Shown here in pieces: positions 14,173 to 15,306 of a DNA stretch of 25,189 bases; the stretch's first letter is position 1; each line of letters opens with the position of its first letter. The position numbers and the translations under genes are program-made. Source of the stretch: Acutalibacteraceae bacterium (GTDB taxonomy: Bacteria; Bacillota; Clostridia; Oscillospirales; Acutalibacteraceae); assembly GCA_045533135.1 (NCBI GenBank), contig JAZSHG010000255.1, positions 1 to 25,189 on the forward strand. The letters run 5' to 3'. The notes under the pieces are model-generated. The model ran no database searches. It worked only from the letters and a program-made list of their open reading frames with translations, and was not told where the DNA came from.

Positions 14173-14203
14173 GATAAAACCTCCTAAGATATCTGCACAC
14201 GCG

Positions 14204-14231
14204 AAAAAGGCTTACGGTGTCCGTAAGCCTT
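14204..14231 (-). terminator. Intrinsic terminator of the zinc-ribbon gene
   Basis: AAGGCTTACGG (14207-14217), TGT, CCGTAAGCCTT (14221-14231). On the minus strand the stem is followed by TTTTT. Confidence 0.8.
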
Positions 14232-14266
14232 AATTCACGCATCTTCTGTGAGAATGTTCCCCAGAA

Positions 14267-14545
14267 TTAGCCTTCCTGCTTCATAGCAGCAAAGCACTCG
14301 CTGCAGTACACAGGACGATCCTCACGGGGCTTGAAGGGAACTTTGCACTCTTTGCCGCAGTTAGCGCAAACGGCAGAATGCATCTCGCGCTCGGGCTTCG
14401 CAGCGTTCTTGCGCGCGTCACGACAAGCTTTGCAGCGCTGAGGCTCATTCACAAAGCCTTTCTCAGCATAGAACTCTTGCTCACCGGCGGTGAACACAAA
14501 TTCATTGCCACATTCTTTGCAAGTGAGAGTCTTGTCTTCGTACAT
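14267..14545 (-). CDS. Double zinc-ribbon protein (probable zinc-ribbon domain plus CxxC-x17-CxxC domain), 92 aa
   Basis: DKTLTCKECGNEFVFTAGEQEFYAEKGF.NEPQRCKACR and AVCANCGKECKVPFKP..DRPVYCSECF. RBS GAGG upstream. Confidence 0.92.
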   Translation of the reverse strand: MYEDKTLTCKECGNEFVFTAGEQEFYAEKGFVNEPQRCKACRDARKNAAKPEREMHSAVCANCGKECKVPFKPREDRPVYCSECFAAMKQEG

Positions 14546-14577
14546 GATGTTAACCTCGCTTTAGAAAAATAGTTTTT

Positions 14578-14640
14578 TGCCCATAGACGGACTCGCACCG
14601 ACATCTTTGAAATCAACGCTCTGCTTTAAGCTACCCGGGC
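14578..14640 (-). ncRNA. tRNA-like element with a truncated anticodon arm, in the 5' leader of the zinc-ribbon gene
   Basis: Minus strand GCCCGGG-TA-GCTT-AAAGCA-GAGC-G-TTG-ATTT-CAA-AGAT-GTCGG-TGCGAGT-CCGTC-TATGGGC-A. Hand fold gives an acceptor-like stem, D arm, 3-bp stub arm and T arm. No anticodon loop and no CCA. Confidence 0.65.
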
Positions 14641-14672
14641 ATATATAGCAAACGGAAACCCGTTATGCACAA

Positions 14673-15242
14673 TTATAAAAAGTCCTTACCAATTTTTTTG
14701 CGAATGCGTTGAAGCGCATTATCAACAGCCTTTTCGGTCACCGACAGTGTTTCGGCAATCTGCTCATACGACTGACCGTTCAAAAACAAATACAGAACAG
14801 GATACTCCAGCTCTGAAAGTCGACTTTGCAGCCAAGAGCGCAAATGCTCCGTATCCTCTTGCTTTTGCAGACGAAGCGCAGGATCCGCCTCCAACTCATC
14901 AGGAAAAGCGGCAAGATCTTCATCCGACATCGGTTCAATGTTCGTATGACGGCTACGCACCAAGGAAAGCATACGGTTGCGACTGCACACCAACGCAAAC
15001 GAGCGAAATGCTTTATTCCGTTGTGGATCAAAAGCATCAACGGCGGCTAAAAGTCCAACGAGACCCTCTTGTTCCAGATCCTCATATTCCGAAGGAGAAA
15101 CGGAGAAAAAGCGGCTTTGTGCGCGAAGCAACGGCGCATACCGTTGAACCAGCAGTGCAAATGCCAATTCATCACCGGAAGTGTAAGCGCCAACCAGTTC
15201 TTCATCTGACAAAGACTCCGTAGAATTTGCAGAGGAATACAC
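14673..15242 (-). CDS. SigH-like sigma-70 family RNA polymerase sigma factor
   Basis: Region 2 DLEQEGLVGLL.AV..FD...NKAFRSFA..C and region 4 LSELEY.VL.LFLNGQSYEQIA..L....KAVDNALQRIRKK, both characteristic of SigH. GTG at 15242 follows RBS GAGGTGG. Orthology to sporulation SigH is not established. Confidence 0.85.
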   Translation of the reverse strand: MYSSANSTESLSDEELVGAYTSGDELAFALLVQRYAPLLRAQSRFFSVSPSEYEDLEQEGLVGLLAAVDAFDPQRNKAFRSFALVCSRNRMLSLVRSRHTNIEPMSDEDLAAFPDELEADPALRLQKQEDTEHLRSWLQSRLSELEYPVLYLFLNGQSYEQIAETLSVTEKAVDNALQRIRKKIGKDFL

Positions 15243-15277
15243 GTTGCCACCTCGCACTTAGGATATGATACATAACA

Positions 15278-15306
15278 AGTTTACCTCAATTTGCGCACAT
15301 TGTCAA
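15278..15306 (-). promoter_or_regulatory. Putative sigma-A promoter for the SigH-like gene
   Basis: Minus strand: TTGACA, 17 bp, TAAACT. Confidence 0.65.

Follow-up and report, generated by a model that had tools for sequence, protein, structure and literature searches.

The window analysed here is a stretch of 25,189 nucleotides from a genome of the family Acutalibacteraceae. On its minus strand, a gene for a diverged SigH-type sigma factor (194 aa) is followed by a gene for a 92-residue double zinc-ribbon protein, and between the two lies a 63-nt sequence that has the form of a tRNA and cannot decode. What does such an element do in front of a protein-coding gene, and why has it been kept there? 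We describe its fold, conservation, origin and exclusive position; our preferred reading, to which we give a probability of roughly 55%, is that the element is a cutting signal for RNase P that gives the zinc-ribbon mRNA a folded 5' end. The features of the locus are collected in Table 1. All of those listed in the first-pass annotation (TATAAT box, hairpin, tRNA-like element, ribosome-binding site, 92-aa gene and terminator) were found again at the same positions by direct reading, the terminator by eye.

Table 1. Features of the sigma factor/zinc-ribbon locus, in the order of transcription (window coordinates).
Feature	Coordinates	Strand	Basis or remark
Candidate sigma-70-type promoter of the sigH-like gene (TTGACA, 17 nt, TAAACT)	15278..15306	minus	consensus scan 10/12, pattern match only
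Gene for a diverged SigH-type sigma factor, 194 aa, upstream gene of the unit	14673..15257	minus	Pfam Sigma70_r2 + r4_2
TATAAT box	14677-14672	minus	overlaps TAA stop (14675-14673) of the sigma ORF
Small hairpin between sigH stop and element (AACGG/GTTT/CCGTT, 5 bp + 4-nt loop)	14651..14664	minus	read directly
ATAT 5' leader immediately before G+1	14641..14644	minus	pre-tRNA leader signature of window genome
Pseudo-tRNA, relic of tRNA-Thr(GGU)	14578..14640	minus	Rfam tRNA 33.9 bits; model R1 78.4 bits; synteny with true tRNA-Thr
Acceptor strands of element	14640-14634 and 14585-14579	minus	
D arm of element	14631-14618	minus	
3-bp stub in place of anticodon arm	14616-14607	minus	
T arm of element	14602-14586	minus	
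Discriminator A of element	14578	minus	
A/U-rich linker, variable, with conserved extended SD motif AAAG(C/U)GAGGT at its end (14562-14553)	14553..14577	minus	alignment A1
Shine-Dalgarno GAGG	14557-14554	minus	
92-aa double zinc-ribbon protein gene (zf_Tbcl + zf_Tbcl_2)	14267..14545	minus	ORF + Pfam/NCBIfam scores; ATG at 14545
Intrinsic terminator of zinc-ribbon gene (about 11-bp stem, 3-nt loop, T-run)	14204..14231	minus	read by eye

Fold, distribution and origin of the element

The match of the element to the Rfam tRNA model (RF00005; gathering score, 29 bits) spans model positions 1–71, with 2 nt in the anticodon-arm region where the model has a 9-nt stretch, and cmscan keeps tRNA as the best member of Rfam clan CL00001 for it; ARAGORN calls no tRNA in the window. 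The element is an unannotated RNA, missed by tRNA finders and labelled simply as tRNA by Rfam. Between positions 14200 and 14750, no other Rfam family was matched at E-values up to 10 except TPP, and that match (17.4 bits vs 54.3, inside coding sequence) was discarded as chance. In place of a 7-nt anticodon loop the element has the 3-bp stub with a 4-nt loop, a loop that varies from 4 to about 25 nt in relatives. The element does not encode CCA (AAA follows the discriminator); CCA is encoded in 25/25 real tRNAs of the window genome. Because the anticodon loop and CCA are gone, the element cannot decode. Most bases of the tRNA tertiary core are nevertheless retained, that is, U8, A14, A21, G26/A44, G45, G46, T54 and A58; also conserved are a purine as discriminator and, after it, an A-rich tail. 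Acutalibacteraceae elements lack the elbow bases (G18 G19 and U55 C56): there is no GG in their D loop, and positions 55 and 56 of the T loop vary. In elements from other families of the order the elbow is canonical, with GG in the D loop and a T loop of the TTCAAAT type.

Folded as a single sequence, the region 14546–14680 is not unusually stable (z = +1.4), so the case for the element is comparative rather than thermodynamic. In an alignment of 91 elements (A5), covariation supports all four helices: 90.2% of the cells are paired, and 11 of the 19 pairs show changes on both sides, a result reached by 0/500 shuffles. The acceptor helix of one locus (L183, read by eye) is wholly re-coded. Mismatches are conserved at acceptor pairs 5:68 and 6:67 and at 50:64 in the T stem. 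On this comparative evidence, the element lies far above chance and is a real, conserved RNA.

The element is found just 5' of the two-domain zinc-ribbon gene in at least 78 of 121 sampled Acutalibacteraceae genomes, in about 20 of the 30 families of the order Oscillospirales (14/14 loci from its other families) and, in full or reduced form, in other orders of Clostridia. A covariance model built from it (R1) gives one match per genome, each located 20–35 nt upstream of the zinc-ribbon gene; none of the matches lies away from that gene, and two that seemed to do so (G040) are at contig ends, cut right after the start of the same gene. The window genome contains this single locus, with no repeats or further copies. 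The first-pass annotation had taken the RNA and the gene for one module, and that view holds: the element never occurs away from the gene, and some version of it stands at 19 of 24 loci of two-domain orthologues sampled in Clostridia, so these do not generally lack the leader. The element and the zinc-ribbon gene stay paired while the partner upstream of them varies (sigH, tRNA-Gly or a promoter of their own).

In several lineages the element has been truncated or lost (L004, L018, L031, L034, L063 and L074), and the zinc-ribbon gene works without it. A functionless, slowly decaying pseudogene would account for both observations; however, conservation of the 63 nt far exceeds that of the flanking leader, both among about 120 genera and between orders, and the helices are upheld by compensatory changes, which makes this explanation very improbable.

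The neighborhood of the element points to its origin. The window sigma protein has as its best match the SigH equivalogs of NCBIfam (TIGR02859/NF006147), at 105.7 bits and below the cut-off of 212, and is 31% identical to the bona fide SigH of a syntenic locus, L143. The same slot is occupied by a SigH above cut-off in L151 (399.7 bits), L143 (284.5) and L142 (254.8), and there sigH is followed by tRNA-Gly and then by either tRNA-Thr or the element. The gene order is rlmB, sigH, tRNA-Gly(CCC), tRNA-Thr(GGU), tuf in L143; sigH, tRNA-Gly, tRNA-Thr, terminator in L142; and sigH, 6 nt, tRNA-Gly(CCC), 6 nt, element, zinc-ribbon gene in L151. For the most tRNA-like elements, tRNA-Thr(GGU) is the nearest of 43 tRNAs compared; the assignment combines synteny with this 43-tRNA comparison, which is narrower than a full isotype test. 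With a true tRNA-Thr(GGU) in the same slot elsewhere and with the order in L151, the element is, as judged from gene order and sequence, a degenerate tRNA-Thr(GGU) gene kept in the sigH, tRNA-Gly, tRNA-Thr locus of Clostridia. The link to rqcH and trmK that the first-pass annotation had entertained is not supported; the conserved neighbor is sigH instead.

The genomes thus provide a readable series from a true tRNA-Thr beside tuf, to a pseudo-tRNA without the anticodon loop, to a three-armed form and to a bare minihelix; in the last stage the element is lost, and a promoter and a plain hairpin are found instead. Whole lineages have no D arm or only the minihelix, with a zinc-ribbon protein that is still about 70% identical; the reduced lineages keep only the acceptor helix and a T-arm-like hairpin. 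What remains under selection in a tRNA after decoding has been lost can be read from the series, which is also a natural test bed for the substrate rules of RNase P in Clostridia.

Transcription and proposed processing of the leader

The first-pass annotation had placed the element and the zinc-ribbon gene in a short transcription unit of their own, behind the TATAAT box. The comparison speaks against this: the box is unique to the window genome and conserved in no other locus, the gap between the sigma stop and G+1 (median, 25 nt) does not exceed 10 nt at 22 of 66 loci, and in one family (L151) a genuine tRNA-Gly stands 6 nt from the sigH stop on one side and 6 nt from the element on the other. 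We count the short gaps as evidence for co-transcription of sigH and the zinc-ribbon gene, and the candidate promoter upstream of the sigH-like gene is likely the start of that co-transcript.

An own promoter would make RNase P unnecessary: transcription would start at or just before the element, and the relic would do no more than stabilize the 5' end or insulate the unit from a leaky sigH terminator before it. Besides the TATAAT box in the window, this explanation can draw on the T-rich stretches that follow hairpins ahead of the element in many loci and on the paralogues, which have exactly a promoter and a 5' hairpin. We nonetheless regard it as distinctly unlikely: the loci have no -35 or -10 box in common at any constant distance from the element, and the short gaps argue against it, as does the ATAT leader discussed below. 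A hairpin of unrelated sequence ends 3–10 nt before G+1 in 25–31 of 64 related loci; the one in the window is probably a weak terminator or a protector of the 3' end of the sigH mRNA after cleavage.

The four nucleotides before G+1 are those that precede tRNAs in this genome. Of 63 distinct elements, 44 have the exact ATAT leader; among the 25 real tRNAs of the window genome 9 have it, and the per-position counts there are T(-1) 23, A(-2) 19, T(-3) 17 and A(-4) 20. In the genome as a whole, ATAT occurs at a frequency of 0.0055. The leader junction is also that of the true tRNA-Thr genes in L142 and L143. We considered ATAT as a -10 box and rejected it. The ATAT|G junction also occurs before real tRNAs in the 3-nt spacers inside tRNA clusters, so ATAT is not a promoter; as a -10 box, it would also place initiation within the acceptor strand, the pairing of which covaries.

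The element has kept the parts that RNase P would use, that is, the ATAT leader, an acceptor helix that begins with G+1, the T arm and most of the core bases. From these we infer co-transcription, RNase P cleavage and stabilization in the following sequence. Transcription from the sigH promoter (in some lineages, the tRNA-Gly promoter) would proceed through the element into the zinc-ribbon gene; RNase P would then cut between T(-1) at 14641 and G(+1) at 14640, parting the sigH mRNA, which often ends in a small hairpin, from the zinc-ribbon mRNA. The relic would probably stay on the latter as a fully base-paired 5' cap and shield the monophosphorylated 5' end against 5'-to-3' decay, with a strong, conserved Shine-Dalgarno sequence about 20 nt downstream.

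Both the shape and the context of an RNase P substrate are found. The element has a single-stranded 5' leader, an acceptor helix of seven positions and a T stem of 5 bp; covariation supports the pairing in both helices, which carry the mismatches noted above (5:68, 6:67 and 50:64). The element and the tRNAs of the window genome share the ATAT|G junction. An acceptor helix joined to a T-arm-like hairpin is reportedly the classical minimal substrate of RNase P, from the work of McClain, Guerrier-Takada and Altman in 1987. The form that persists in the reduced lineages corresponds to this minimal substrate, and we count it for RNase P.

What happens at the 3' side of the element would depend on RNase Z. 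The RNase Z equivalog (TIGR02651) is found above cut-off in 1 of 40 Acutalibacteraceae genomes that are at least 95% complete and was not found above cut-off in the window's own genome (75% complete); the search used this single equivalog model, and other nucleases of the metallo-beta-lactamase (MBL) fold are present. Because RNase Z was not found, the relic is probably retained on the mRNA; the encoded CCA of all 25 real tRNAs, the scarcity of RNase Z matches and the 5' hairpins of the second gene copies (see below) are counted for retention. The scarcity also bears on the proposal that the element is a stand-alone tRNA-like small RNA, cut at both ends, perhaps CCA-tailed and acting in trans in the manner of mascRNA, for instance on a tRNA-binding enzyme, to which it would be a decoy or a cofactor. 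The retained core bases, the canonical D and T loops in other families of the order and the conserved discriminator and A-rich tail would fit such an RNA. However, the enzyme needed to free a 3' end without CCA was not found in 39 of the 40 genomes, a 3'-side cut would leave the 5' end of the zinc-ribbon mRNA unprotected, and the minihelix forms speak against a function of the whole fold; we consider a small RNA improbable.

Several observations count against the RNase P reading. The acceptor and T-stem mismatches are among them. The G18 G19/U55 C56 elbow and CCA each help RNase P, and because both are missing from the Acutalibacteraceae elements, the enzyme could cut poorly. Conservation of the D arm, the stub, G26/A44 and G45 G46 goes further than a minimal substrate requires, and in the case of the first three this would allow for a second ligand. 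Finally, a promoter inside the 3' end of sigH is possible at loci with longer gaps.

The zinc-ribbon gene and its protein

The 92-aa protein is covered end to end by two domains, zf_Tbcl (PF13451; 88.2 bits vs 24) and zf_Tbcl_2 (PF23477; 73.0 vs 27), and it matches the CxxC-x17-CxxC model TIGR04272 (72.8 bits vs 36); its four CxxC pairs have cysteines that are invariant or nearly so (alignment A4). The gene is present in 113 of 121 Acutalibacteraceae genomes, at 63–96% identity save a few weak or partial matches, and the family comprises 10,522 representative clusters at E ≤ 1e-3. As the first-pass annotation had it, the family is widespread, and database and literature searches found no assigned function for zf_Tbcl/zf_Tbcl_2 proteins; no tie of zf_Tbcl to a tRNA-like leader or to sigH was found in the literature. 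The AlphaFold2 model has a pLDDT of 87. Searches for relatives gave a best E of 0.02 or worse in the PDB by sequence, nothing at E ≤ 0.001 with Foldseek against the PDB, a best Z of 3.6 over residues 1–52 only in a wide VIA-align search and nothing usable in the ESM Atlas; no relative with an RNA-binding function was found by structure or sequence. Proteins of Methanosarcina mazei with the CxxC-x17-CxxC domain bind zinc (PMC12704099), so zinc binding by the 92-aa protein is predicted by homology. The protein is abundant and strongly conserved, and its tie with the sigH locus extends over a major class of gut bacteria.

The linker between the element and the Shine-Dalgarno sequence comprises 15–30 variable nt, and the extended Shine-Dalgarno motif is retained also at loci without the element. 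Pairing of a D-stem strand with the AAGC of this region was considered and dropped; the two sites show no co-variation by eye. Second copies of the zinc-ribbon gene have their own TTGACA/TATAAT promoters and no tRNA-like leader; at the head of their transcripts stands a simple hairpin, and the arrangement of A/U-rich linker and Shine-Dalgarno sequence after it is unchanged. Orthologues with their own promoters likewise have no tRNA-like leader. The terminator of the gene was not listed by a consensus terminator scan; its longer stem uses up part of the T-run.

The first-pass annotation had named the protein a candidate reader of the element or of tRNA elbows. In its regulatory form, the element would be an operator, that is, a tRNA mimic in the neighborhood of sigH, tRNA and EF-Tu to which excess zinc-ribbon protein would bind, lowering the translation or the stability of its own mRNA. 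ThrRS and many ribosomal proteins regulate themselves through mimics of their RNA ligands. The constancy of the element-gene pairing while the upstream partner changes, the failure to find the element elsewhere and the conservation of the D arm, G26/A44, G45 G46 and the stub past a minimal RNase P substrate are all consistent with an operator, as is the character of the protein (small, basic, aromatic, predicted to bind zinc and with no known function). However, the elbow bases are not conserved in Acutalibacteraceae, some lineages have lost the D arm or retain only a hairpin with the protein still about 70% identical, paralogues and own-promoter orthologues have no tRNA-like leader, no covarying contact spans the variable linker, and an RNA-binding relative was not found. 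Sequence comparison thus disfavors an elbow reader, and feedback through the leader is, in our judgment, unlikely, though less so than either the small RNA or the own promoter. If it were true, the zf_Tbcl family (>10,000 representative clusters) would be an unrecognized class of proteins that bind tRNA or tRNA-shaped RNA.

Comparison with known systems

The proposed RNase P processing has close relatives. The thrU-tyrU-glyT-thrT-tufB operon of Escherichia coli is a tRNA-mRNA co-transcript resolved by RNase P. The same holds for secG-leuU of E. coli (PMC2241853). As in the tufB operon, tRNA-Gly and tRNA-Thr(GGU) are found directly before a protein gene, L143 even having the order tRNA-Gly, tRNA-Thr, tuf; and, as in the E. 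coli transcripts, RNase P is proposed here to separate the parts at tRNA 5' ends. Unlike in the tufB operon, the tRNA next to the mRNA is non-decoding, without anticodon loop and CCA, yet conserved, the downstream gene encodes a zinc-ribbon protein and not EF-Tu, and the upstream partner is sigH.

Non-decoding tRNA-like processing signals are textbook knowledge in mitochondria and for mammalian MALAT1 and NEAT1; we found no description of a conserved bacterial one. The t-elements of plant mitochondria are non-decoding tRNA-like structures next to mRNAs that act as cleavage signals defining the mRNA ends (PMC1920247). As with these t-elements and with tRNA punctuation in animal mitochondria, a non-decoding tRNA-like structure is kept beside an mRNA; however, the organellar systems use a protein-only RNase P together with RNase Z, whereas the failure to find RNase Z in Acutalibacteraceae leads us to expect a cut at the 5' side only, after which the structure would remain attached to the mRNA. 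Our literature searches found no bacterial counterpart of the t-elements and no paper on the element motif.

The element also resembles mascRNA and the 3' modules of MALAT1 and NEAT1 (Rfam clan CL00001): in each, about 60 nt form a cloverleaf whose anticodon arm is shrunken, and RNase P recognizes it (for the element, by proposal). Unlike the element, mascRNA is eukaryotic, defines a 3' end, is released and has CCA added.

Finally, ermC, the aprE leader and the STAB-SD of cryIIIA are 5'-terminal stabilizer structures of Firmicute mRNAs. The zinc-ribbon leader shares with them a base-paired 5' end with a strong Shine-Dalgarno sequence close by, and the paralogous zinc-ribbon genes show a plain 5' hairpin in the same layout. 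It would differ from these stabilizers in that its 5' end is proposed to arise from an RNase P cut and not from initiation, and in that the structure at the 5' end is a whole tRNA fold.

The locus and its recurrence

In the window, a contig of a metagenome-assembled genome, the element lies between a sigma-70-family gene and the gene for a 92-aa double zinc-ribbon protein. It scores 33.9 bits against the Rfam tRNA model (gathering score 29) with all four arms aligned, and its anticodon-arm stretch has two bases where the model expects 9 nt; an ARAGORN tRNA search of the whole window makes no call. Together with the domain matches of the ORF, these results therefore confirm as written the observation of the first-pass annotation, that is, a TATAAT box, a tRNA-like element, and a gene with two zinc-ribbon domains.

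Features of the locus, in minus-strand order of the window
Feature	Position	Strand	Model match
trmK, NIF3, rqcH genes (first in order, upstream of sigma gene)		-	
Sigma-70-family gene, 194 aa	15257-14673	-	
TATAAT box, overlapping sigma stop codon	14677-14672	-	
Hairpin, 5 bp	14664-14651	-	
ATAT leader, four bases	14644-14641	-	
tRNA-like element, 63 nt	14640-14578	-	Rfam tRNA model
Linker, A/U-rich, 3' end AAAGCGAGGT	14562-14553 (AAAGCGAGGT)	-	
Zinc-ribbon ORF, 92 aa	14545-14267	-	Pfam zf_Tbcl, zf_Tbcl_2; NCBIfam TIGR04272
Terminator	14231-14204	-	
MscS-type channel gene (after terminator)			

The zinc-ribbon gene is present in 113 of 121 genomes (one per genus) of the family Acutalibacteraceae, order Oscillospirales; identity is 63–96%, except in a few matches that are weak or partial. 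A covariance model (R1) built from 25 upstream regions matches at ~45–89 bits in at least 78 genomes of this sample; by comparison of coordinates, every match lies on the contig and strand of the gene, 20–35 nt upstream (once ~95 nt). Genuine tRNAs reach 33–41 bits under R1 in the family sample and up to ~50 bits order-wide, in matches of 80–81 nt. Two matches in one genome (G040) that seemed to lie apart from the gene were rejected as exceptions because their contigs end just past the start of the same gene. Of 80 named loci taken from public genomes, 62 have an R1 match at the same place; in an order-wide sample the element occurs in 75 of 151 genomes (~20 of 30 families), and each of 14 loci retrieved from the order's other families has sigma gene, element, and zinc-ribbon gene in this order. 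The previously proposed module of RNA element and zinc-ribbon gene is real: it recurs across family and order, with the element upstream of the gene. In one genome the whole module occurs in tandem (G107:C12:16038-16928), with a separate zinc-ribbon gene behind each of the two elements (65.9 and 66.1 bits).

The zinc-ribbon protein and its translation signals

The protein family is very large (at E <= 1e-3, 10,522 representative clusters, multi-repeat forms included), and its cysteines are invariant or nearly so (alignment A4). A confident AlphaFold2 model (pLDDT 87) has two small beta-hairpin-plus-helix zinc modules; a search for solved relatives or fold matches gave none of weight (best Z 3.6, residues 1–52 only), and an ESM Atlas search gave nothing usable. 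The sole report found on the C-terminal domain type describes Methanosarcina mazei small proteins that bind zinc, for which a role in transcription was speculated (PMC12704099).

The ribosome-binding sequence AAAG(C/U)GAGG (window 14553-14562) is conserved across orders in nearly all related loci, including loci without the element; it approximates the full anti-Shine-Dalgarno (SD) complement AAAGGAGG plus a single additional pyrimidine and so resembles an SD that carries a bulge. Single-domain paralogues of 75–83 aa with the N-terminal zf_Tbcl only (L154-L163, from the family of genome G392; e.g., L159:1300-1495) have a conserved but different leader, in which AAAGGAGGT comes after an anti-SD box (CTCCTT) and a helix (CTTGGAG...CCAAG); the arrangement resembles a distinct regulatory RNA that sequesters the SD.

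Fold and ancestry of the element

The fold is supported by covariation. In an alignment of 91 elements to the covariance model (A5), standard pairs fill 90.2% of cells and 11 of 19 pairs vary at both partners; the observed values were reached in 0 of 500 column shuffles, and pairing falls to 22–56% when the 3' partner is slid. Fitting to the model biases A5 toward structure; the margin is nevertheless large. At pair 2:71, C-G, G-U, A-U, G-C, and U-A all occur; in another order, C-G replaces U-A at the stub pair 27:43, together with A26/G44 for G26/A44; and, by eye, the entire acceptor helix is re-coded in one lineage (L183). Positions 5:68, 6:67, and 50:64 are mostly unpaired, and the stub loop is free in both length and sequence. 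In one genome (G331) a long stub loop leads ARAGORN to call the element (L146:1794-1869) a tRNA, of unknown type and with an anticodon of four bases; the annotation of some genomes may list such relics as odd tRNAs by mistake.

Many tertiary-core tRNA bases are retained (U8, A9, A14, A21, G26/A44, G45, G46, T54, A58). In other families of the order the D loop has GG and the T loop is TTCAAAT, so the elbow is canonical there; in Acutalibacteraceae the elbow bases have drifted. The zinc-ribbon protein had been proposed as a reader of its leader, which it may be; however, recognition of the elbow fits poorly with this drift and with the loss of the D arm in some lineages. The suggested link with the tRNA-related neighbors rqcH and trmK is not supported.

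Outside the order, R1 finds two kinds of locus. In other Clostridia families the element follows a genuine tRNA-Gly(CCC), as in locus L151: SigH (399.7 bits), 6 nt, tRNA-Gly(CCC), 6 nt, element, zinc-ribbon gene. In two further families a true tRNA-Thr(GGU) occupies the element's slot and shares the ATAT|GCCC junction; the gene orders are rlmB, SigH (284.5 bits, above cut-off), tRNA-Gly(CCC), tRNA-Thr(GGU), and EF-Tu (tuf) in L143 (L143:228-3076) and SigH, tRNA-Gly, tRNA-Thr, and terminator in L142. Among 43 tRNAs compared, tRNA-Thr(GGU) is the nearest to those elements that most resemble tRNAs. Given this closeness and the synteny, the best reading of the element is a relic of the tRNA-Thr gene from a sigH, tRNA-Gly, tRNA-Thr locus. 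The sigma gene of the window scores 105.7 bits against the SigH model (cut-off 212) and its protein is 31% identical to the SigH of L143; by position, it is a diverged SigH. The Clostridia locus recalls the glyT-thrT-tufB arrangement of E. coli; in L143, a single Clostridia genome links a Bacillus-type sigH locus with an E. coli-type tRNA-tufB arrangement.

Transcription and processing

In all 10 genomes of L151's family the element precedes the zinc-ribbon gene; upstream of it is sigH alone, sigH and tRNA-Gly, or tRNA-Gly after an AT-rich stretch that probably bears a promoter. The tRNA-Gly of L151, 6 nt past the sigH stop, would be hard to express except with sigH or from within it; because of this placement, co-transcription of sigH, element, and zinc-ribbon gene is likely. 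From the sigma stop to the first element base (G+1) the median gap is 25 nt, with 22 of 66 loci at 10 nt or below, and the TATAAT of the window has no counterpart in the other loci compared; the separate promoter proposed in the first-pass annotation is thus not supported. In longer-gap loci a hairpin of unrelated sequence ends 3–10 nt before G+1 (25–31 of 64 loci), which fits either leaky termination or a structure that protects the 3' end of the sigH mRNA after a cut.

In a class-wide sample, 96 of 150 genomes have the zinc-ribbon gene; with filters off, R1 matches the leaders of 19 of 24 zinc-ribbon loci from some 15 families. Across loci the element forms a series from the full four-armed form, through forms without a D arm (L165, L179-L182) and others reduced to the acceptor helix plus a T-arm-like hairpin (L172, L175), to loci with a terminator-like hairpin alone. 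Every form has the ATAT leader, a 5' end that is paired, a hairpin like a T arm, and a purine discriminator with an A-rich tail. The classical minimal RNase P substrate is the acceptor/T-arm minihelix, which these shared parts match.

All 25 real tRNAs found in the window's genome encode CCA, and their leaders have T(-1) in 23, A(-2) in 19, T(-3) in 17, and A(-4) in 20. The exact ATAT leader precedes 9 of the 25 and 44 of 63 distinct elements (genome-wide ATAT frequency, 0.0055). ATAT was rejected as a promoter: in the tRNA clusters of this genome the motif is made by the A of CCA and a 3-nt spacer, so it is processing context.

An RNase Z equivalog scores above cut-off in one of 40 family genomes (each at least 95% complete) and does not in the window's own 75%-complete metagenome-assembled genome, which suggests that the family largely lacks RNase Z; this scarcity agrees with the CCA encoded by all tRNAs found. 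Without RNase Z there is no obvious cut after the discriminator, and the relic probably stays attached to the zinc-ribbon mRNA. RNase P would cut at the 5' side of the element, and the mRNA would then start at G+1, paired in the acceptor helix. In Firmicutes, 5' ends paired in this way resist 5'-to-3' exonucleolytic decay.

Second gene copies in the family (L188-L197), and the orthologue in a genome that retains the true tRNA-Thr (G312), have no tRNA-like element; their promoters are near-consensus (TTGACA, 17 nt, TATAAT-type). Their transcripts have a conserved 5'-terminal hairpin (often GTGCCTGA...TCAGGCA), then TATATTTT and the SD, that is, the same A/U-rich linker and SD layout as the sigH-locus copy. 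A folded 5' end followed by a linker and a strong SD is thus the shared design, and these copies support it for the sigH-locus copy, which would gain its folded end by processing rather than initiation.

We therefore somewhat favor, with a probability of about 0.55, the reading that the element is a tRNA-Thr relic, retained within a sigH co-transcript to signal RNase P processing and to cap the 5' end of the zinc-ribbon mRNA; its origin and fold are much firmer than this mechanism. A literature search for the element found no description of it; the closest known systems are tRNA-mRNA operons, e.g., tufB and secG-leuU (PMC2241853), and the organellar t-elements (PMC1920247).
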